Shown: piece by piece, positions 2,584-63,540 of the stretch | How the letters are laid out: every line of letters begins with the position of its first letter | Numbering within the stretch: the stretch's first letter is position 1 | Source of the DNA: Polyangiales bacterium | Lineage (GTDB): Bacteria > Myxococcota_A > Polyangia > Polyangiales > Ga0077539 | Length of the DNA stretch: 64,000 bases | Assembly (NCBI GenBank): GCA_046351515.1 | Contig: JAXLYJ010000005.1 | Location: forward strand, 370,892-434,891 | Reading direction: 5' to 3' | Translations under genes and position numbers: made by a program | Notes under the pieces: generated by a model | The model's input: only the letters and a program-made list of their open reading frames with translations | Database searches by the model: none | What the model was told of the DNA's origin: nothing

Positions 2584-4128
2584 GTGACCCCGCTCGCTCG
2601 CACGCGCAACACGCCCAGCACCGACGAGTTTCCGTTCTTCTTCGAGCCCGTGCACATCGCTCTCGCCGAGCGTGCGCGGGACTTCGCGATGAACGTCGCC
2701 GGTCCCGAAGAAGACCTGCACCGTCGAGCCGCCGCAGCGACCTACGAAGTTCTCGGCGAACGCTGCAAGGCGCTCGCGCTGCGCCTCGGAAAAGAGCGGC
2801 TCATCGACGCGTGCGTCCCAGCTGCGTACGGCGGACTGCCGTTCGGCGGTCGGCGCGAGCAGCTCGATGTTCGCTCGATCTGTTTGCTGCGCGAGACCCT
2901 CGCGTGGTCGAGCGCGCTCGCGGAGTTCGTCCTCGCGATGCAGGGGCTCGGCACCTACCCGATCGTCGTCGCGGGCAGCGACGAGCAACGCAAAGAGTAC
3001 TTGCCCCCCGTGTTGCGCGGCGAGTCCATCGCCGCGTTCGCCGTGACCGAGCCGGAGGCAGGCTCGGACGTGGGCGCGATGCGCACGACGGCCGATCGAC
3101 GCAAGGACGTCTACGTGATCAACGGTCGCAAGACGTTCATCTCGAACGCCGGCATCGCGGGACAGTACGTCGTGTTCGCGAAGACCGATCCGGCCGCAGG
3201 AAGCCGCGGAATCTCTGCGTTCATCGTGAAGGACTCAGACCCGGGCTTTCACTTCGAAGGTCCGCAGATGCTCATCACCGAGCACCCCGTCGGGTCGATT
3301 CGCTTCGATGAGCTCACGATCCCCGCCAACCGTCGGCTCGGCCGCGAAGGAGAGGGATTCAAGCTCGCGATGCGGACGCTCGACACGTTTCGCACCACCG
3401 TCGGCGCTGCCGCCTGCGGAATGGCGCGCCGCGCCCTCGACGAGTCGCTCTTTCGCGCGACGACGCGAGAGCAGTTCGGCAAGGCGATCTCGGACAACCA
3501 GCTCGTGCAGGGGTTGCTCGCGAACATGGCGACCGACCTCGACGCTGCTCGCCTGCTCGTCTACCGCGCCGCGTACGGGCGCGACAAAGCGATCGAGCGC
3601 GTCTCGATCGACTCGAGCATGGCCAAGTACTTTGCGACCGAGGCCGCGCAGCGCGTGATCGACAGCGCGGTGCAGGTGCACGGCGGCGCCGGCGTGCTGA
3701 GAGGGATCGCCGTCGAGCGTCTCTACCGAGACATTCGCGCGCTGCGTATCTACGAAGGCACGTCGGAGATCCACCAGGTGATCATCGCGCGCGTGCTCGT
3801 GGGCGGAGAGAAGGCGCGGCAGGACGCGCGCATCCCCGGTGACGCGGGAGACAACCTTCGCGACACGATTCGCGAGGGGCGCGGGCGCGACGGTGACACC
3901 GCGCAGACGGCGCAGATGCCAGCGGTGCTCGCGCCGCCGACGAAGGCTCCGCAGCGACCGACGCCGAAGAAGCCGTTGATCGCCGCGAATCTCTCGGACG
4001 ATCCGCGAAAGACACTGCCCGAGATTCCTGCGCGAAAAGCGCAGGCGGTGATCCGCGAGACGATGCCCGACACGCCCGCGTCCAAGCTGCTCGGAAAGGG
4101 CGGCAAGCGCGAGAACAGCAACGAGTGA
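2584..4128 (+). CDS. Acyl-CoA dehydrogenase with an unusual ~130-aa low-complexity C-terminal tail
   Basis: GTG start. AFAVTEPEAGSDV, YVINGRKTFISNAG, IYEGTSEIHQVIIARVL: full acyl-CoA dehydrogenase N-terminal, middle and C-terminal domains. After ...ARVLVGG there is a Pro/Lys/Arg-rich extension ending ...KGGKRENSNE. Confidence 0.85.
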   Translation: MTPLARTRNTPSTDEFPFFFEPVHIALAERARDFAMNVAGPEEDLHRRAAAATYEVLGERCKALALRLGKERLIDACVPAAYGGLPFGGRREQLDVRSICLLRETLAWSSALAEFVLAMQGLGTYPIVVAGSDEQRKEYLPPVLRGESIAAFAVTEPEAGSDVGAMRTTADRRKDVYVINGRKTFISNAGIAGQYVVFAKTDPAAGSRGISAFIVKDSDPGFHFEGPQMLITEHPVGSIRFDELTIPANRRLGREGEGFKLAMRTLDTFRTTVGAAACGMARRALDESLFRATTREQFGKAISDNQLVQGLLANMATDLDAARLLVYRAAYGRDKAIERVSIDSSMAKYFATEAAQRVIDSAVQVHGGAGVLRGIAVERLYRDIRALRIYEGTSEIHQVIIARVLVGGEKARQDARIPGDAGDNLRDTIREGRGRDGDTAQTAQMPAVLAPPTKAPQRPTPKKPLIAANLSDDPRKTLPEIPARKAQAVIRETMPDTPASKLLGKGGKRENSNE

Positions 4129-16443: not shown

Positions 16444-16530
16444 GCCGTGCGCTGCGACCGTGACGCGCCGACCTCACAGTGACCTCTCGCGTCGATGCCG
16501 CGCGCAGCGCTCGGCGATACAGTGCGGTCG

Positions 16531-17094
16531 ATGCAACCCGTTCGATCGTGCGCAGCGAACAAGCGCTGCGCGTGGCTCGTCGCGCTATGGACCGCATCAT
16601 CGAGCGTCGGATGCGCGTCGATGTCGAGCCCGACCTCGCCGGCCTCGCTCGATGAAGGCCGCTCTTCGGGCGCGCAGTCGTCGTGCCCTGCCTGGGGATC
16701 GCGAGGGTTTTCTCTGGTGGTTCGCGCCCAGAGCTCGCACGCGCTGTTCTTTCGAGAGTTCGCCTACGACGATCGAAGCGGCGTGGTCCGTGTTCATGAC
16801 TCGGACTTGTTCGCGGCTGCGGACGGGCACGAGAGTCGAGAGCCGCGGGTGATCCAGCGTACGCTCACGCTCGATCGCGCGCAGCGCGACGAGCTCGCGC
16901 GCGACTTGATGGCGATGTGCCCCGACCCGAGAGAGCTCGAGCCGCTCGAAGCCGCAGGCGGCGGAACGACGCTCGTGGTCACCACGGCCTCGGGGGCGCA
17001 GTCCCGGGTTCGGTACGCGACGGGCACCGCGGACGTGGCTCGACGGGCACACGCGCGATTCGTTCGGTATTTTCCTGAGCTTCGGCGCCAGTGA
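16531..17094 (+). CDS. Hypothetical lipoprotein
   Basis: MQPVRSCAANKRCAWLVALWTASSSVGC lipobox; start refined to the ATG at 16531. Confidence 0.45.
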   Translation: MQPVRSCAANKRCAWLVALWTASSSVGCASMSSPTSPASLDEGRSSGAQSSCPAWGSRGFSLVVRAQSSHALFFREFAYDDRSGVVRVHDSDLFAAADGHESREPRVIQRTLTLDRAQRDELARDLMAMCPDPRELEPLEAAGGGTTLVVTTASGAQSRVRYATGTADVARRAHARFVRYFPELRRQ

Positions 17095-17125
17095 GCCTGG
17101 GGTGATGCGCCGGGGAACGGGCGGT

Positions 17126-17253
17126 TTTGTAGGGTTAGGGGACGGTGTTCAAAAGTTCAAAGTTGGGTCTCAACGTGACTCACTCGCGCGGGGCGATGGG
17201 CCGGAGTGAGACCAACAAATGAACTTTTGAACACCGTCCCCTCACCCTACAAA
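17126..17253. repeat. Large imperfect inverted repeat (33-bp arms, 1 mismatch, 62-bp spacer with nested palindromes) just upstream of the ECF sigma gene
   Basis: Arm 17126-17158 TTTGTAGGGTTAGGGGACGGTGTTCAAAAGTTC versus reverse complement of 17221-17253 TTTGTAGGGTGAGGGGACGGTGTTCAAAAGTTC. Spacer contains GTCTCA...TGAGAC and CTCACTC...GAGTGAG. Confidence 0.6.
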
Positions 17254-17325
17254 GCCGCTGCGTCGATTTCCCTGAAACCAAACGGCGGCTCGAAGCACTT
17301 GCTCGTCGTGAGTGTTCTCGTTGCA

Positions 17326-17925
17326 ATGTCTGCGGTGGAGCCGCCGTCGTCTCGGGTGCCGGTCGTTCCGATCGAACGGGCGGTGGTCGAGCGCGTTCGG
17401 TCTGGCGACGCGAGCGCGTTTCGTGAGCTGTTTCGCAGTCACGCTGCGCGCGTGCGGCGATTTCTTCGCAACCTCGTCGACTCCGATGCCGCGGCTGATG
17501 AGGCGACGCAAGAGTGCTTCGTCCGCGCGCACGCGGCGCTGACGGGCGGCGCCGAGGTGCAGAGCCTCGTCCCGTGGTTGCTCGGAGTGGCGCGCAACGT
17601 AGCCCGCGAACAACAGCGCTCACGCAAGAACCTCGTCGCGCTCGAAGCCGACGAAGCCGAGCAGCACGTGAGCCCCGCGCCGGACCCCGAGGCGCTCTTG
17701 CTCGGTCGAGAGGCGGACGCGCTCTTGTCGCGCGCGCTCGAGAGGCTCAGCGAAGACCGTCGCGCGGCGCTCGTGCTGCGCGTTGATCAAGGCCTCGCCT
17801 ACGAAGACATCGCCGCCATCCTCGGATGGAACGTCGCGCGCGTGAAGAACGAGATCCACCGCGCTCGCATGCAACTTCGCGCAGCCATCGCCGCGCGCCT
17901 CGATCGCTCGGAGGACGAACGATGA
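17326..17925 (+). CDS. ECF (sigma-70 group 4) RNA polymerase sigma factor
   Basis: Start refined to the ATG at 17326. Region 2 (FRELFRSHAARVRRFLRNLV...ATQECFVRAH) and region 4 (LVLRVDQGLAYEDIAAILGWNVARVKNEIHRARMQLR). Confidence 0.85.
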   Translation: MSAVEPPSSRVPVVPIERAVVERVRSGDASAFRELFRSHAARVRRFLRNLVDSDAAADEATQECFVRAHAALTGGAEVQSLVPWLLGVARNVAREQQRSRKNLVALEADEAEQHVSPAPDPEALLLGREADALLSRALERLSEDRRAALVLRVDQGLAYEDIAAILGWNVARVKNEIHRARMQLRAAIAARLDRSEDER

Positions 17926-19055
17926 GCACGCACGTCGACATCGAATCGCTCGAAGCTCTCGCCGCTGACCAGCCCATCTCCAACGGCGCGCTCGTCGCGG
18001 CGCACCTCGAATCGTGTGAAGAGTGCCGCGAAGAGCTCGCGTGGCTGCGCGCCGAACGCGCGCTCTTCGAGAAGCGAGCAGACGCGCAAGGCTCGGTCGA
18101 GCACTTGTGGGCAGGCGTCGAAGAGAAGCGCGCGCAGCGCAAGACGCAGAGCGCGCCGTATCGAGCCAACGCGCTGCCGCTGCCGAATCCTGCGAGGGTG
18201 AGCTCGTCGCGTTGGTGGCTGCTGGCTGCGGCGCTCCCGTTGGTCCTCGCGGGGACAGCGACGTTTGCGATCGTGAAGCGCGCGAGAGCGGCGCGCGGAG
18301 TGGATGCCGTGGTCGAGCAGCGAGCGGTCGGAAGCGGAGCGCGGTTGCGCGTGCGCGTGGCGTCGGCGGACCTGCAGATCGAGCGCAGCGCGAGCGGGCT
18401 GGTCGTCGTGCGAAGCGCAGAGCGAGCCGCAGAGCCGAGGCTCGTGGCCATCGACGCGCGCACGTTCGAGCTGCGATTCGAGCGAAATCCGACGGAGCGA
18501 GTGCGCATCGAGGTTCCGCAGGGGACGGCGCTGGACATCACAACGTCGTCCGGTGACGTGACGATCGGAGCGATCGGCGGAGCGACGAAGATCCTCACAA
18601 GCTCCGGTGACATTCGCGCAGCCGAACTCGGCGAGACGGACATCACGACCACGTCGGGCGACGTTCGTGTGCGCTCGATCGTGGGATCGATCGCGATTCG
18701 CTCGTCGTCGGGAGACATCGAAGTCGAACGCTCTCTTCACGCGAGCCGGGTGCTCGCGACGAGCACGTCGGGCTCCGTGCAATGGGCGGGGCGGTGCGCG
18801 CTCGAGTGCGCGATGCAAGTGCGCACCAACTCGGGTGACGTGCGGCTCTCGTTCGACCGAGCGAGCGCGGCGACCGTTCGCTTCGAGACGAGCTCCGGCA
18901 GTTTTCGCGACGGAACGACCTCGGGCCGCACGCTCCAACAGCCCTCGATTCTCTGGCAGATGGGCTCGGGCGTCGGCGTGATCAACGTCGAGACCACCTC
19001 GGGGTCGCTCGCGCTCGACGGCGCGGGCGCGCTCGTGATCGACGGCGTCGACTGA
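17922..19055 (+). CDS. Anti-sigma factor: N-terminal zinc-binding anti-sigma domain, TM helix, C-terminal DUF4097-like beta-strand repeat (putative adhesin) domain
   Basis: ATGA overlap with the sigma stop. HLESCEECREELAWL (HxxxCxxC), TM WWLLAAALPLVLAG, then TSSGDV/SSGDI repeats (at least 8). Confidence 0.7.
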   Translation: MSTHVDIESLEALAADQPISNGALVAAHLESCEECREELAWLRAERALFEKRADAQGSVEHLWAGVEEKRAQRKTQSAPYRANALPLPNPARVSSSRWWLLAAALPLVLAGTATFAIVKRARAARGVDAVVEQRAVGSGARLRVRVASADLQIERSASGLVVVRSAERAAEPRLVAIDARTFELRFERNPTERVRIEVPQGTALDITTSSGDVTIGAIGGATKILTSSGDIRAAELGETDITTTSGDVRVRSIVGSIAIRSSSGDIEVERSLHASRVLATSTSGSVQWAGRCALECAMQVRTNSGDVRLSFDRASAATVRFETSSGSFRDGTTSGRTLQQPSILWQMGSGVGVINVETTSGSLALDGAGALVIDGVD

Positions 19056-19058
19056 GCG

Positions 19059-20639
19059 CTACCTCGCTGGCAGCGCGAGGGTGAAGCGCGCTCCATCTTG
19101 CGCGCGAAGCTCGACGTGGGTCGCGCTCGAGAACGCGTCGGGCACGAAGACGTTCGCTCGCGTGCTTGGCTCTCCGTCGGCGAGCTCGACGAGCGAGGCG
19201 GCGCCCGTTCCGAGCAGTGTTGCGCGCGCGTCGAAGTAGCGCGCCTGCAGCGTGGCGCTTCCCCGCGGAAGCGCCTTGGGCCTTCGCGAGTGCGAATAGC
19301 GAAGCGCTCCGTCGTCGAAGAGCGTGGCCACGTGCACGAGCGGGTTGCCCTCGTCGCTCGTGAGCGCCATCGGCCCGGGACGCAGCGTCGAAGCGCGCTC
19401 GTACAGCGCGCGATACGTGTAGTCCGAGAGCCACTGCGGGTCGCAATAGCCCATGAAGTCCGTCGTCATCGTGGGGTCGAAGAACGTGTTGTCCCTCGCG
19501 TCCCAGCCCCACACGCCGAGCGCCGCGCCGCGGTACGGATAGCGAGCGTCGGCGCCGGAGGTCGAACAGGGGGCGTGCTCTCTTCCGAACAAGTGACCGA
19601 GCTCGTGCGCGAAGGTCCACGCGGTGTCGTCGCCGGTGAATCCCACGCCGCTGCCGACGCGGATCGTTGCGTCGGTGATGTCGCTCACGACGTAGCTCTG
19701 TCCCGTCACGCACGAGCGACCGCAGTACGCGGCGCGCGAGACGTCCGGCGCGACGAGCGCGTAGTAGTACACGTCGTCCGCGGGCATCTCGCGGTCGCGC
19801 AGCGTCTCGAGCACGCCGTTGAGCGAGCCGAAGTTGACGTTGCCAGTGAACGTGGTCGTTCCGAAATCGATCGGAGCGTGGACGGTGAACTCGACGGCGG
19901 TGATGGGATAGAGCGCGACGAGCAGCGAGCGCATGCGCTGCAGTTGTTCGGCGCTGGTGTCGGGCAAGCGATTGGATCCGTCGCGGGTCCAACGCACAGG
20001 GACGAGCGTGACGCGCACGGCTCCGGGCGCGTTCGACGGGGCGAGGGGCGCGAGGGCTCCGTCGCGCGGCGCGCGCGCGGGGCTCGCGGCGGCGGGAGCG
20101 GCGCCCGATGGGTCGAGCAGGCGGATGGACCAGCGCGAGGTCGAGCGCACTCTCGCTGCGTCGACTTGAAATGTGAACACAGAGTTCGGGTCGCTCTCGC
20201 GAGACGCAGCAGAGATCATTCGCGTCTCGCGCAGGGCGGTGACCGCGCCGGGGGACTCTTCCCAGAGCAGCTCGGCGGTGACGTTTCGCGCGGTGAATCC
20301 CGCGGCAGGAGCGACGTACGCGCGGACGGCGGCGGCGCGCCCGGCGACGAGCGGCGCGTTGCGGTTCGAGACGAGCGCGTCGTTGGAGAACAGGCCGACG
20401 CGGACGCCCTGAAAGATCGCGACTTCGCTCACCGCGAGGTCGCGCGCGAGCGCGGGGTTGGCCGCGGGCGCGTCGGGCGCGGCGACGGCGTCGTTCGCGG
20501 TCGAGTCCGCCGCGGGCGAAGCTCTGTCCGACATGGGTGCGGTCGCGTCGTTGCCGAGCGAGCTGTCCGGGTCGATGGGCGGAGCGCCCGCGCAAGCGGC
20601 GAGCGCGAGGCAGAGCGAGGAGGTGGTGAGCGCGCGCAT
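19059..20639 (-). CDS. Secreted zinc metalloprotease lipoprotein (HExxHxxGxxH metzincin-like)
   Basis: MRALTTSSLCLALAAC lipobox; FAHELGHLFGREH zinc-binding motif; 526 aa. Convergent with the anti-sigma gene, 3-nt gap. Confidence 0.75.
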   Translation of the reverse strand: MRALTTSSLCLALAACAGAPPIDPDSSLGNDATAPMSDRASPAADSTANDAVAAPDAPAANPALARDLAVSEVAIFQGVRVGLFSNDALVSNRNAPLVAGRAAAVRAYVAPAAGFTARNVTAELLWEESPGAVTALRETRMISAASRESDPNSVFTFQVDAARVRSTSRWSIRLLDPSGAAPAAASPARAPRDGALAPLAPSNAPGAVRVTLVPVRWTRDGSNRLPDTSAEQLQRMRSLLVALYPITAVEFTVHAPIDFGTTTFTGNVNFGSLNGVLETLRDREMPADDVYYYALVAPDVSRAAYCGRSCVTGQSYVVSDITDATIRVGSGVGFTGDDTAWTFAHELGHLFGREHAPCSTSGADARYPYRGAALGVWGWDARDNTFFDPTMTTDFMGYCDPQWLSDYTYRALYERASTLRPGPMALTSDEGNPLVHVATLFDDGALRYSHSRRPKALPRGSATLQARYFDARATLLGTGAASLVELADGEPSTRANVFVPDAFSSATHVELRAQDGARFTLALPAR

Positions 20640-40190: not shown

Positions 40191-40838
40191 TCACGAAGCG
40201 CGGGCAGACCACGCGATGAGCACGGTGCTCGCGTAGTACAGCGGCAGCCCCCAGAGCCGATTGACGAACGCGGGCTTCACGAAGCGATCGCGCGCCACGG
40301 AGAGGTCCGAGAGGTAGAAGAGCACCGCGCCCGCGGGCACGAGCCATCGGGCGCCGTGTCCGAAAGCCCCGAACGCGAGCGCGACCATCGCCGAGATCGC
40401 CGCGCAGTACGCGAGCACGGGGAGCTTCATCTTCTTCTCGACGTGCGGGAGCAGCCAATAGATCACTCGCGCGCCGATCGCCCCGAGCACGAAGAGCGCC
40501 GCGGGCAACCAGCCGCGCTGCAGACCGAGCGTGGTGAACGCCACCGCGAGCGCGACGTGTCCGACGAGAAAGCTCACGAGCCCGCCCAAGAACGCGGGCG
40601 TTGCGCGAGAGAGCAGGAGCACGTCGCCGATCGCGCAGAAGGCGAGCGCGCCGAGGATGAGCTTGGCGTAGAGCGTCGCGCCTGCGCTCACCGTCCAAGC
40701 GATGCCCAGAAACGAGGCGCTCGCGAGCACCTTGGTGATGGCCGCGAGGATCTTCTGTCCCTGGTGCTCGCTCGCGATGTGCAGCGCTACGAAGAGCGCA
40801 CACAAAATCGAGGCGGCCCACGGAAGGATCGCGCTCAC
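40191..40838 (-). CDS. YhhN-family (lysoplasmalogenase-like) integral membrane protein
   Basis: 215 aa with 7-8 TM helices; conserved HxxxE-like start (ALHIASEHQG) and overall YhhN topology. Confidence 0.65.
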   Translation of the reverse strand: MSAILPWAASILCALFVALHIASEHQGQKILAAITKVLASASFLGIAWTVSAGATLYAKLILGALAFCAIGDVLLLSRATPAFLGGLVSFLVGHVALAVAFTTLGLQRGWLPAALFVLGAIGARVIYWLLPHVEKKMKLPVLAYCAAISAMVALAFGAFGHGARWLVPAGAVLFYLSDLSVARDRFVKPAFVNRLWGLPLYYASTVLIAWSARAS

Positions 40839-41146
40839 GTCTTCACCGCCGGGCGAGCGGGGGCGTTCTCTTGCCGCTCTTTCTCGTGGTCGTGGTCGTG
40901 GTCGTGGTCGTGATCGTGATCGTGCGCTTTGCCTGCGCGCTTGAGCTGCACTTCGACGTGCTCGCCGAGCGCTCCGAGCGGAACACCGAGGATCTCTTCG
41001 GCCATCTCCTTGAGGTCCTGCCGGTGCTCGTGCGGCATCTCGTCCTCGGGCACCTCGACGTCGACCGTGAGCGAGGTGCGGCCCGTTTGCCGGTCGAACT
41101 TGTAGCGAAGCGTCACGCGTCGCTCGTCTGAACGTGCTTGTTTCAT
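40835..41146 (-). CDS. Small hypothetical protein ending in an (HD)7 His-Asp repeat
   Basis: 103 aa ...KRAGKAHDHDHDHDHDHDHEKERQ. The repeat is encoded by a GTGGTC/GTGATC hexanucleotide microsatellite at 40878-40920. ATGA overlap with the YhhN gene. Confidence 0.5.
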   Translation of the reverse strand: MKQARSDERRVTLRYKFDRQTGRTSLTVDVEVPEDEMPHEHRQDLKEMAEEILGVPLGALGEHVEVQLKRAGKAHDHDHDHDHDHDHEKERQENAPARPAVKT

Positions 41147-41156
41147 CGCATCGACC

Positions 41157-41780
41157 TCACGCCTTCACGACCAGGGTCACTTCGTAGTTTCCGCCCGGAT
41201 CGCCCTGTTCTTTCACCCACTCGACGCTGCCGAGCTGCTTGGCCCGCTGCTCGAGCGCCTCGCGATACACCTTGTTGAGGGCGGTCTGGACCTGCTCGCG
41301 CAAGGACGGTTCGGCGCCGAGCAGCCTCGCCACGGCGGCGCGAGAGAGCGCCTCTTCTTGCGCCTTCTTCGCGCGGTCCATTTGATCGTCGAGGCCCTTG
41401 TCGAGCTGTTGGTCGATCTCTTCGTCCTTGGTGTCCTTGTCGAAGCCGCGCCGCTCGGTGACGGTGATCGTCTTCTTCTCGACCGCGCGAAGCACCACGC
41501 GCGAGGCGTCGGGCTCGAGCTGAGCGACGACGCCTTCGATGTTCTTCGTGAGCGATCCGTCCTCTTGTTTGCTCCAGCCGTCCGCTTCGAGAACGCGCCG
41601 CAAGATCTCGCGCATCTGCTCTTCAGGAAGCACCGGCAAGAGCTTCACGTCGACGTGGATCTCGTCCTGAGCGCTCACGTCTTGCGAGCGATCCTTGCTT
41701 CGGACGATGCGGCCGAGACCTTCCCAGCCGAGTTCGAGGTTCATTCCGCAGGGCATGTGGGGGTATTTCATCGGTACCAC
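41157..41780 (-). CDS. Hypothetical acidic protein (207 aa), upstream partner of the HD-repeat protein
   Basis: Charged and coiled-coil-like; no known motif. 10-nt spacing to the downstream gene suggests an operon. Confidence 0.5.
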   Translation of the reverse strand: MVPMKYPHMPCGMNLELGWEGLGRIVRSKDRSQDVSAQDEIHVDVKLLPVLPEEQMREILRRVLEADGWSKQEDGSLTKNIEGVVAQLEPDASRVVLRAVEKKTITVTERRGFDKDTKDEEIDQQLDKGLDDQMDRAKKAQEEALSRAAVARLLGAEPSLREQVQTALNKVYREALEQRAKQLGSVEWVKEQGDPGGNYEVTLVVKA

Positions 41781-47793: not shown

Positions 47794-50700
47794 ATGGAGC
47801 GACGCAGCGTCTCTCTAGACCCAGCGTGGTCGGTCACGTTTTCCCCGCTCAGAGTGTGCGGTGACCGATGGGATCCAGAGCCCTACTGCGTCGTGGCGTT
47901 GTGTCCCGTCGACGCATGGAGTGCAGTGTTGACTACGGAAGCTGCGGTGGATGTGCAGAGCCCTGTCATTCAGGCGGTGGCTCGACTCAGTGATCGCGCG
48001 TTGGCCCGCCTGGTGGGCGCGAACGCGTACCTTCGGGGCCGGGTGTACGCGAGGCAAGCTTGCGTTCACGCGCTCGCGGTCGCGGGCAGTGAAGCCTCCG
48101 GTCGCGTTCATGGCCGCGCGAGCGACCCTTACGACGTGAAGGTCAACCTCTCGGACGAGGGCGGCTTGACCAGCCAGTGCTCGTGTCCCGCGTGGCGCGG
48201 ACCGGACCGGCACTGCAAGCACGTCGCTGCGTTGCTCGTGGCGTTGCGCGACAAAGTCCGCCCGCCGCGATCACAGCAGCAAGGGGAGGGTGGGGAGAGA
48301 GACTCGAGCGCGCCGCCCGCGCCCAACGCGACGCCCAACGCAGCGAGCAACAACAACGCTGGCAGCGCGAACAACGCTCTCAGGCCGCCCAAGCCCAAGG
48401 ACGGCGGTCGCGAGCGTGAGCGCGAGCGAGAGCGAGACCGAGATCGCCACGATCGCCGCGACGCGAAGAACCCGCGACGGCGCGATGACACGGGCTCTGC
48501 GCGCGAAGTGGTCGTGATGGATCGATCGGGCCCTCGCGTGGTGTCCGCCGGGGAATGTCCACGGTGCAGTCGGTCTCGGCGTCCGCGAGCGCGAGCAACG
48601 AGCAGCCCAAGGGGTTTGCGGCGTGGGTTCCGTCGAACGAGCCGAGAAAGGCGCCGGAGATCGAGTACCGCGTGCACGTGCGGTCCAACTCGCTCGCGAT
48701 CACGCCGTACCTCGCTGAGTCGCGCACGGCCGTCGCGCCGTCGGACGCGCTCGATCAGCTCGGCGCGCTCCCGAGCGTGCATCGTCCGATCCTTCGCTTG
48801 CTCGCGCGGTTGCACCCCAAGGGTGCCCGAGGAGCGCAGGTCGAGGCGCGCAACGAAGACGCTGCTGAGCTGGTCGCGCGGCTGCGCGGGCGGCGCGTGC
48901 TGGTCGAGCCGATGCTCATGGAGCTCCGGTACCTCGACGAGCCGCTCGTCCCGAAGATCGAGCTCGAGATGGTCCCGCCGTCGCACGTGCGCGTGCGTGT
49001 TGTGTTCGAGCGCAAGTCCGGCGATGCGCGGCGATTCAACCTCAATCAGGGCCTGTGGCTCGAAGGCGATCCGGGCTGGCACCTGGACCCGATTCAAGGC
49101 GTCGCGCGGCCGCTCGCGGATCACGTCACGTCCACGTGGCTCGAGCGTCTGCTCAAGACGCCGGCGGTCACTCACCCCACGAGCGACGTCGCGCGGTTGC
49201 TGAGCGAACACCTGCCCAAGGTCTCGCTCGCGCTCAACGCTCCGCTGCCGGACATTCGCGCGATCGTCGACGAGATCGACGTCGCGCCGAAGTTCGTGAT
49301 GCGCGCGGCGGGTGACCTCACGCGCGTGGTCGGAACGCTCGATGTGAAGTACGGCGAGCACGAGTTTCAGGTGCCGCCGGTCGAGCTTCCTCCGCCGCTC
49401 GTCATCTTGGAGAGCGCGGGCGTGCGGCCCAAGTGCCTGCGTCGAGACGTGGGCGCTGAGCGCCTCGCGGTGAACATGCTGCTCGATGGCGGGCTCGAAG
49501 TGACCGATGATTTCCGTGCGTTTCAAGCGACGGAAGACCGCGCGGTGAAGTTCTGGAGCGAGTGCGTCCCGTCGCTGCCGCGCGAGTGGGAGAAGTACGT
49601 CCCCGAGCACATGGCGAACGTGAAGGTTCGCAGCGCTCCCCTGACGCCGCGCGCGCGTCTCGTCCGGTGTGGATTGGCTCTCGGTCGACGTCGAGTTCGG
49701 CTCGGAGGGCAGCAAGGCGGCGGAAGAAGACCTGCGCCGCGCCCTCGAAATGGGCCACAAGCTCGTCCGCCTCGAAGACGGAACGTACGCGCGCATCGAA
49801 GGCCTCCAAGTCGCCGAGGTGCTCTCTCGCCTGCAAGAGATCTATCAAAACGGCAAGGGGCAGCTCCCGCTCTCGCAAGCAGGGCGCGTGCAGGACCTGC
49901 TCTCGCAGCTCGGGCAGCGCGCGGACGTCGGCAAGAGCACGAAGGACTTCTTCGCGGCGCTCGGCGAGCACAAGGTCGAGTCCATCGATCCGCCGAAGGA
50001 CCTCGACGCGACGATGCGCCCCTACCAGCAAGAGGGCTTCTCGTGGCTCGCGTACCTGTACCGCACAGGGACTGGCGGAATCCTCGCGGACGACATGGGT
50101 CTCGGAAAGACCCTGCAAGCCATCGCGCTGCTCTTGTGGGTCAAGCGCTTGAGCGAGCCGTTCGTCGAGGCCGACGAAGCGCCGCGCACCAAGGCGAAGA
50201 AGGGCGCGAAGAAGGCCGCCGCTGCGAAGGAAGCGTCCGTCGACGACGACGAAGAAGAGAGCGCGGCGACGAAGAAGGGCGCGAAGAAGGGCGCGAAGAA
50301 GGCTGCGAAGAAGGGCGAAGAGTCCAGCGCTGGCCCGGTGATGGGACCGATGGCGAAGCCGCTCGAGCAGGGCGGTCCGCTGGCGTTGGTCGTGGCGCCG
50401 ACGTCGGTGGTTCCGAACTGGGTGCGCGAGGTGCAGAAGTTTGCGCCCGCGCTGCGAGCGATCGCGTGGACGGGCTCGGATCGCGCTCAGTACAAGAGCG
50501 AGATCGAGCGCGCGGACGTGGTCGTGACGTCCTACGCGCTGCTGCGTCGCGACGAGGAGTTTCTCTCGTCGATCGACTGGGGCTACGTGATCCTCGACGA
50601 AGCGCAGTCGATCAAGAACCCGACCTCGGCCACCGCGCGCGCCGCGAAGAACCTCAAGGGCAAGCGTCGCCTGGCCCTCACGGGAACGCCGATCGAGAAC

Positions 50701-62730: not shown

Positions 62731-63540
62731 GTGGTACAACGTCGAATCGCTATGAATGGCAGCCGGCCCTCCAGCATCCCAGCAGATACCGCGGCCCCCG
62801 ACGCCGCGAGCCAGGGTGCCCAGGGCGAAGCAAACGAGCCTTCTTCCCCGCGGCCAAGAGCCCTGGACGGAGGTTCGCCCATGCACGCACCCGCCCTCGC
62901 TTCAGTCACGCAGCTTCACGCCTCGCAGTCATCGAGCGCGTCGAACACCGACGAGGGCATCCCTCCGTATGTGCGCCGCGCGCAGAGCGGAGACAGCGCG
63001 GGCTTTCGCGACCTGTACACTCGCCACAAGCGCGACGTCGCGCGGCTCGTCCTGCGCATGATCGGGCCTCGCGCGGACCTCGAAGACGTCGTCCAAGAGG
63101 TGTTCGTGCAGGTGTTTCGATCGCTCAACGCGTTTCGCGCTGAATCGCGGTTCAGCACATGGCTGCACCGCGTGACGGTCAACGTCTCGCTGATGTACCT
63201 GCGCGCGCAGAAGTCCCGCCCGCAGCTCGCGCGCGACAGCACCGTCCCCGAGCCCCCCGCGCCCGAGCTCGAGTCGCCCGCCTCGGGCGCCGCGACCGCT
63301 GAGCGGCTTCGCGCGCTCTACACAATCCTCGATCAACTCTCGGACAAAAAGCGCGTCGTGTTCGTGCTGCACGACCTCGAAGGCGTCCCTGCGTCGGAGA
63401 TCGCCACCATGGTCGACGCGCCTGTGCTCACCGTTCGCACGCGGCTCTTCTACGCGCGGCGCGAGGTGTACGCGGCGATGGCCAAGGATCCTGCGCTCGA
63501 CTCGATCGCGCGCGAGTTGGGTCTCGAAGAGGTTCGCTGA
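62731..63540 (+). CDS. ECF sigma factor with a long Pro/Ser-rich N-terminal extension
   Basis: Region 2 FRDLYTRHKRDVARLVLRMIG...VQEVFVQVFRS; region 4 RVVFVLHDLEGVPASEIATMVDAPVLTVRTRLFYARRE. True start may be the ATG at 62752 or further downstream. Confidence 0.8.
   Translation: MVQRRIAMNGSRPSSIPADTAAPDAASQGAQGEANEPSSPRPRALDGGSPMHAPALASVTQLHASQSSSASNTDEGIPPYVRRAQSGDSAGFRDLYTRHKRDVARLVLRMIGPRADLEDVVQEVFVQVFRSLNAFRAESRFSTWLHRVTVNVSLMYLRAQKSRPQLARDSTVPEPPAPELESPASGAATAERLRALYTILDQLSDKKRVVFVLHDLEGVPASEIATMVDAPVLTVRTRLFYARREVYAAMAKDPALDSIARELGLEEVR

Follow-up and report, generated by a model that had tools for sequence, protein, structure and literature searches.

Among the MITEs described in bacteria are the Correia elements of Neisseria, the ERIC/IRU sequences of enterobacteria, and the RUP elements of pneumococci. 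MITEs, ERIC, and RUP often lie beside promoters or gene 3' ends, where they can serve as RNA hairpins or provide promoter elements; the copies of a MITE are usually homogeneous over their whole length, and the Correia elements duplicate a TA target. Another class of short palindromic repeats comprises the REPINs and REP-BIMEs of Pseudomonas and enterobacteria, which are mobilized by RAYT (Y1 HUH) transposases (Bertels and Rainey 2011, PMC3116915; PMC3337134). The literature that we searched contained no REPIN/RAYT, MITE, or REP system in Myxococcota, nor the motif string reported below. Here we analyze a long hairpin located immediately upstream of an ECF sigma factor operon in a 64-kb stretch of DNA (the window), and we conclude, with a probability of roughly 0.7, that it represents a single member of a non-coding, lineage-restricted family of palindromic repeats in Myxococcota, and one of the MITE/REPIN type.

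A repeat search of the window recovered two 52-nt arms (17121-17172 and 17207-17258) that are 87% complementary and separated by 34 nt, so that the whole palindromic element, to which no strand is assigned, spans 138 nt (17121-17258). This is the sole inverted repeat of more than 35 nt across the 64 kb, and its arm was expected 0.00 times by chance in 100 shuffles of the window. An earlier note on this DNA had described a near-perfect 33-bp inverted repeat upstream of the sigma factor gene, with its right arm ending about 70 nt before the ATG, and both points are confirmed: 17126-17158 (TTTGTAGGGTTAGGGGACGGTGTTCAAAAGTTC) is the reverse complement of 17221-17253 save for one base (T versus G at arm position 11), and 73 nt separate the end of the 33-nt arm from 17326. 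The 33-nt arms are nevertheless only part of the repeat, as the full arms reach 52 nt and enclose a 34-nt loop instead of the 62-bp spacer given in that note, and the two nested palindromes that it placed in the spacer (GTCTCA/TGAGAC and CTCACTC/GAGTGAG) are present but constitute the inner continuation of the same hairpin, not separate features.

Comparison with loci fetched from other genomes (numbered with the prefix L below) divides each arm into three parts. The left 22-nt family core (GGGGACGGTGTTCAAAAGTTCA; 17138-17159, + strand) is an exact 22-mer common to L001-L004, L019, and L131, and it recurs inverted as the right core at 17220-17241 (- strand). Inside the cores are subfamily-specific inner arms, the left at 17160-17172 (+) and the right at 17207-17219 (-), which are complementary to each other and flank a loop (17173-17206, no strand) with small sub-hairpins formed by CTCACTC/GAGTGAG. 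Outside the cores the window copy has an extra 17-nt palindrome, consisting of a left arm (GCGGTTTTGTAGGGTTA; 17121-17137, +) that is restricted to the window and L011 copy and a right arm (TCACCCTACAAAGCCGC; 17242-17258, -); it is absent in the other copies, where complementarity ends at GGGGAC. It is possible that a pre-existing small hairpin, GCGGTTTTGTAGGGT-TA-ACCCTACAAAGCCGC, was split when the element inserted at its center, and it is also possible that the arms were extended in this subfamily. The L011 copy has TA directly after GTCCCC.

Folding predictions, which the earlier note had proposed as a check, returned a single long and very stable hairpin, with an energy of -99.8 kcal/mol as RNA (z = -11.3) and -55.8 kcal/mol as DNA (z = -12.3), and 0 of 200 shuffles folded as well. 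No ORF fits inside the element, the size of which is 104 to 138 nt in the window and 112 to 124 nt elsewhere. An Rfam search of 16900-17500 at permissive thresholds gave mir-3151 as its best match (34.2 bits versus a gathering threshold of 83); we rejected this match as a generic long-hairpin artefact far below threshold. A sigma-70 promoter scan of the region called no site in the element, and a terminator scan of 16900-17450 found no terminator-like site. The stem of more than 50 bp is followed by GCGTCGATTTCCC with no U-tract, a form that differs from that of an intrinsic terminator.

The gene context that the earlier note had read from the sequence (an ECF sigma factor, a DUF4097 protein, and a convergent metalloprotease) is borne out by Pfam domains. 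The ECF sigma factor gene (17326-17925, +) encodes Sigma70_r2 and r4_2 domains, and its product is 100% identical to MFO0558387.1, which a homology search recovered on a 490-kb contig of an NCBI Polyangiales MAG and which has a 99% twin in MFO0563713.1. The putative anti-sigma gene (17922-19055, +; Pfam DUF4097) has a start codon that overlaps the sigma stop codon (ATGA), and the DUF4097 genes of the orthologous loci are called with the same 4-nt overlap, which in the window lies at 17922-17925. Since the orthologous anti-sigma proteins are called at 367 to 370 amino acids, a 409-amino-acid ORF that begins at 17826 probably overstates the length of the gene. The convergent Peptidase_M66 gene (19059-20639, -) is syntenic in L009 and L132. 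On the other side of the element lies a conserved hypothetical gene (16495-17094, +) with no Pfam match; the proteins encoded here and at the corresponding place in L009 share 68% identity and a FPELRRQ* end. A 26-nt spacer (17095-17120, +), which is without counterpart in L009 and L010, separates its stop codon from the element. No transposase, RAYT, or integrase was found among the 46 genes called in the window, and the surroundings of the element are ordinary core chromosome.

A homology search with the sigma protein fetched ortholog loci at 88, 84, 83, 81, and 68% identity, and these permit a comparison of occupied and empty sites. In L009 and L010 (sigma identity of 81%), as well as in L132 and L133 (68%), the upstream gene, the sigma factor gene, the DUF4097 gene, and the convergent M66 gene are in synteny with the window and the element is absent; L132 additionally shares prfC and genes for an alpha/beta hydrolase, an amino-acid permease, a creatininase, and an AMP-binding enzyme with the window. 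The distance from the stop codon of the upstream gene to the promoter block described below (GCGTCGATTT..TGAAACC-N17-CACT) is 6 nt in L009 and L010 and 25 nt in L132, the spacer of L132 and L133 being 78 nt; in the window the same distance is made up of 26 nt, the 138-nt hairpin, and 1 nt. No core-like site occurs in L005-L010, L132, or L133, which amount to ~50 kb from close relatives. The closest ortholog, L011 (sigma identity of 88%), is a 1.3-kb contig that starts inside the element loop, and its right half of the element, the only half available, lies at the same distance from the promoter block as in the window. At orthologous sites the element is therefore present in the window and L011 and absent in L009/L010, L132/L133, and L005-L008.

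That syntenic orthologous loci lack the element indicates that it is an insertion, and the simplest history consistent with these comparisons would be a single, old event in the common ancestor of the window species and the L011 organism. The possibility of a MITE-like mobile insertion, one of three raised in the earlier note, is thus supported by the empty orthologous loci and also by the observation that the core ends other hairpins at unrelated intergenic sites. The boundaries of the insertion are inexact, since the length difference between the window and the empty sites is about 165 nt and not a clean 104 or 138 nt. In five complete copies no direct repeat that would represent a target-site duplication is common to the two flanks, and a possible TA, on the left side in the window and the right side in L011, does not recur in the other copies.

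Directly before the sigma start codon, all orthologs down to 68% sigma identity retain a block of the form GCGTCGATTTnnnTGAAACC-N17-CACT...CGTGAG...ATG, or more fully GCGTCGATTTnnnTGAAACC-N17-CACTTGC...GTGAGTGTyCTCGTTGCnATG, whereas the spacer upstream of it is not conserved. In the window this promoter/leader block (GCGTCGATTTCCCTGAAACC-N17-CACTTGC..GTGAGTGTTCTCGTTGCA; 17259-17325, +) begins 1 nt after the element. Its TGAAAC resembles an ECF -35 element, and in position and -35 motif its TGAAACC-N17-CACT matches the autoregulated promoters of ECF sigma factors (-35 of the GGAAC/TGAAAC type). We infer that the block acts as a promoter, and the promoter of the ECF operon is probably autoregulated. 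In contrast to such promoters the hairpin is a separate feature, as it is missing in orthologs that keep the block. The ortholog comparison shows that the element lies upstream of the predicted promoter and that the core regulation of the ECF operon would be independent of the hairpin, because the orthologous operons keep the promoter block without it; the transcript of the operon itself should begin after the hairpin, as the promoter-like block lies 3' of it. Variation among the orthologs falls on third codon positions, in frame, after a GTG at 17311, and for this reason that GTG may be the true sigma start instead of the ATG at 17326, in which case the sigma mRNA may be leaderless. The only other match to TGAAAC-N14-19-CACTT in the window (49498-49525, -; 0.02 expected by chance) was rejected as a second promoter block, as it lies inside long ORFs and is probably coincidental.

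A 596-Gb genome collection contains 6 exact matches to the 22-mer core, on 4 contigs from two other MAGs, compared to ~0.07 expected by chance; these MAGs are 'Myxococcales bacterium' JAAFIF01 (three contigs) and 'Deltaproteobacteria bacterium' JAUXYJ01. With four central positions relaxed, the degenerate core has 5, 4 to 5, 2, and 1 sites in the corresponding loci L001-L004 (5.7 to 8 kb each), respectively, though these counts are biased because the loci were fetched for containing the core. JAAFIF01 has at least 5 separate core sites on three contigs, a density that looks higher than in the window clade in what is a biased sample. The window clade has 1 copy in the 64-kb window and none in the ~50 kb from relatives, or ~1 per 114 kb. 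The earlier note had pointed out that an arm present at many unrelated intergenic sites would indicate a generic repeat; such sites were found in other genomes but not in the window or its close relatives, where the repeat is low-copy.

From these loci a family member is defined as two inverted 22-nt cores (GGGGACGGTGTTCAnnnGTTCA) around a variable, self-complementary interior, giving a total length of ~104 to 124 nt. Inverted core pairs 112 to 124 nt apart are present in L003 (213-336) and twice in L002 (1328-1444 and 6413-6524), and composites of 226 and 343 nt also occur among the core-bounded elements. In L001 a BIME-like cluster of three left and two right ends (3493-3911) lies between two convergent genes, and L002 has two ends in the same orientation at the contig edge. 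Complete pairs elsewhere fold as hairpins (z of -4.6 to -7.1), and a decayed pair does not (z of -1.7). A position-by-position comparison of five complete elements gave 78 to 88% identity between elements in the core and 30% in the inner ten nucleotides, with ~30%, equal to background, outside; the inner arms agree with each other at 62% within an element. All copies are intergenic and occur in orientations of every kind, with about half at gene 3' ends or between convergent genes. The neighbors of the other copies include genes for methyltransferases, a hexapeptide transferase, MscS, a pseudouridine synthase, and ExbB, none of which is ECF-related. No core pairs 0.7 to 3 kb apart, as expected of an autonomous parent element, were present in the fetched loci, and neither a scan of viral contigs nor a plasmid BLAST gave matches.

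We also scanned metagenomes with the degenerate core GGGACGGTGTTCNANNGTTC, which returned >120 contigs. Most of these matches (within L012-L131) were discarded because they are not repeats but coding sequence for an FKBP isomerase (G-T-L-x-D-G-T-V-F-D-S-S); GGGACGGTGTTCNANNGTTC coincides with the codons for D-G-T-V-F-D-S-S in FKBP-type peptidyl-prolyl isomerases, a trap for motif searches. The metagenome contigs that appear related to the family are L019, L131, and L127, and perhaps L099, L090, L064/75/92, and L082. The last of these, a contig of lower GC content, has three direct core-like repeats (GTTAGTGAACAATTGAACACCGTCCCCGGAAG; 1053-1210) just downstream of an RHS-toxin C-terminus and a small ORF; the context of these repeats gave no clue to a binding protein. 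In L001, tandem 9-mers (GGGGACAGC on the left and GCTGTCCCC on the right; 3468-3490 and 3795-3840) resemble a reiterated element terminus and flank the element ends in MAG JAAFIF01. Copies of the element are cut by the start of two contigs (L002 at 1-50 and L011 at 1-66), which suggests that the palindromic repeats break short-read assemblies.

These properties can be set against those of the two classes of repeat named at the outset. As in MITEs, the element is short, non-coding, intergenic, bounded by terminal inverted repeats, and present or absent between relatives, and the inverted 22-nt core stands at both ends of the copies in the window, L003, L001, and L002. It differs from MITEs in that we detected no target-site duplication around the copies and in that the interiors of the family diverge strongly between genomes; the fetched loci also gave no parent insertion sequence sharing these ends. 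The similarity to REPINs extends further, to a hairpin of ~100 to 140 nt with two inverted, conserved sequences of ~22 to 25 nt around a less conserved spacer, a strictly intergenic location, clusters of alternating ends (L001), the absence of target-site duplication, and persistence at orthologous sites with the core conserved. With its hairpin form, alternating-end clusters, and long persistence, and with no target duplications, the element resembles RAYT-mobilized REPINs more than cut-and-paste MITEs. The correspondence with REPINs is incomplete. A REP is in itself a short imperfect palindrome behind a conserved GTAG-type tetranucleotide, but the sequence of the family core GGGGACGGTGTTCAAAAGTTCA contains two GTTC, lacks GAAC, and has no internal self-complementarity, and among the copies only that of the window and L011 has GTAG in front of the core. 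The copy density may be lower than the tens to hundreds per genome of REPINs, being ~1 per 114 kb sampled in the window clade, and the cognate single-copy RAYT (Y1_Tnp) gene that the repeats flank in a REPIN system did not turn up in the window or in any fetched locus.

Two pairs of orthologous copies provide a measure of constraint on the arms. The comparison of the window with L011 is free of search bias because L011 was found via the sigma protein. Here the right core and inner arm are identical at 37 of 38 positions, compared to 85 of 115 (74%) of the 4-fold-degenerate sites of the sigma gene (Fisher p = 0.0009), and both the loop (22 of 28 positions in the overlap, 17176-17203) and the outer right arm, a counterpart of which is retained in L011 (11 of 14), have drifted at about the neutral rate. 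The second pair, L019 and L131, has no relation to the window locus; the 44-nt core block of these two orthologs (275-320 on the minus strand of L019 and 697-740 in L131) is identical at 41 of 44 positions, and at positions outside the search pattern 21 of 24 are identical versus 150 of 319 (47%) in the flanks, made up of spacer and of coding sequence for the N-terminus (p = 9e-5). These two loci share a decayed remnant of the partner arm, and their conserved arm, read outward, gives TTGAAC-N17-TACCCT 8 to 9 nt before the ATG of a lipoprotein-like gene; it is possible that this arm was co-opted as a leaderless-type promoter. The equivalent hexamers in the window, TTGAAC (17227-17232) and TACAAA (17248-17253), are 15 nt apart and fail the promoter scan, so an outward promoter in the window arms is speculative. 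Because core and inner arm evolve more slowly than synonymous sites, these comparisons suggest that both are still under some constraint and that a protein still binds the core.

This conservation lends itself to an explanation in which the element was inserted and then exapted, its arms now forming a host cis-regulatory module, either with the 22-bp cores as paired sites for a conserved DNA-binding protein of Myxococcota or as an outward promoter (TTGAAC-N15-17-TAnnnT) that would feed sigma-70-dependent transcription into the ECF operon. The rate of core and inner arm evolution in two independent orthologous pairs, the identity of the 22-mer in at least 4 genomes whose element interiors differ, and the promoter-like arm of L019 and L131 with its decayed partner are all consistent with such a role. 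We nonetheless consider it doubtful for the window copy: its arms contain no sigma-70-type site (with a 15-nt spacer and TACAAA as candidate -10), the orthologous operons function without it, family copies occur in every orientation with about half at gene 3' ends, and no candidate binding protein was identified. A dedicated operator, that is, a binding platform for a dimeric regulator as the earlier note had envisaged, here of the ECF operon and perhaps of the M66 peptidase gene, would fit the location of the repeat ~15 nt upstream of the -35-like TGAAAC and the arm conservation between the window and L011, but is very improbable when every other orthologous operon retains the promoter block and lacks the element, the same core flanks unrelated genes elsewhere, and neither cores placed 82 nt apart, center to center, nor complementarity along the whole hairpin would be typical of an operator. 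Arm conservation does hint at protein binding to the core as such. LexA boxes, CRP/MrpC-type and IHF sites, Tn3-family 38-bp ends, integron attC sites, and retron msd sequences were rejected as misfits in spacing, end motifs, and gene context.

Explanations at the RNA level fare no better. The extreme stability of the predicted RNA fold would suit a structured 5' leader on the transcript of the ECF operon, for instance an attenuator or a riboswitch-like element, the third possibility raised in the earlier note, but the conserved promoter-like block sits downstream of the hairpin, no Rfam family scored above threshold, the orthologs have no structure at this site, and near-perfect 52-bp arms are typical of DNA repeats and not of regulatory RNAs; a leader role is extremely unlikely. 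Scarcely more plausible is that the hairpin evolved in place as a long, factor-independent "I-shaped" terminator (lacking a U-tract) of the upstream gene. It starts 27 nt after the stop codon, and about half of the family copies are at 3' ends or between convergent genes; however, there is neither a U-tract nor a terminator-like call, the core is common to elements in promoter regions and in other genomes, and the orthologous upstream gene in L009 is without a hairpin. The tempting reading of this locus as a giant operator or riboswitch of the ECF sigma module is removed by these comparisons, and what emerges in its place is a repeat family with the core GGGGACGGTGTTCAnnnGTTCA, present in MAGs of Polyangiales and of other Myxococcota, for which the literature that we searched gave no earlier description.

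If the hairpin belongs to a mobile repeat family, the family would have spread by transposition catalyzed in trans by an enzyme that recognizes the 22-nt core. The absence of target duplications together with the hairpin form would favor a single-strand HUH/Y1-type enzyme over a DDE enzyme. One copy would have inserted into the few nucleotides that separate the end of the hypothetical gene from the promoter of the ECF sigma-DUF4097 operon, where its effect would be mainly passive: if transcription of the upstream gene runs through it, an RNA stem of ~60 bp would form 27 nt past the stop codon, and it could protect the 3' end of the upstream mRNA and hinder read-through into the sigma operon. 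Such elements can insulate or rewire adjacent promoters and can confuse gene callers in high-GC genomes. Palindromic repeats beside promoters are common, and the remaining interest of this family lies in the purifying selection on its arms and in its protein partner. One tentative and rather unlikely extension is that the core is the site of an active, vertically inherited protein of the Polyangia or Myxococcota (whether a RAYT-like transposase that has been domesticated or a DNA-binding protein of the host), with the hairpins as residents under purifying selection whose arms have been recruited as promoter or insulator modules. The arms would then serve as a leaderless-type promoter in L019 and L131 and as a boundary between the upstream gene and the ECF promoter in the window, and the family would be the first REPIN-like persistent repeat system in Myxococcota, and one with a non-palindromic core.

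Elsewhere in the window, a second ECF-type sigma factor gene with Sigma70_r2 and r4_2 domains is located near the end (62731-63540, +), and two adjacent genes at 40835-41780 (-), beside a YhhN-family gene, match fvmX3-analog and fvmX5, which are domains of FtsH ternary systems.
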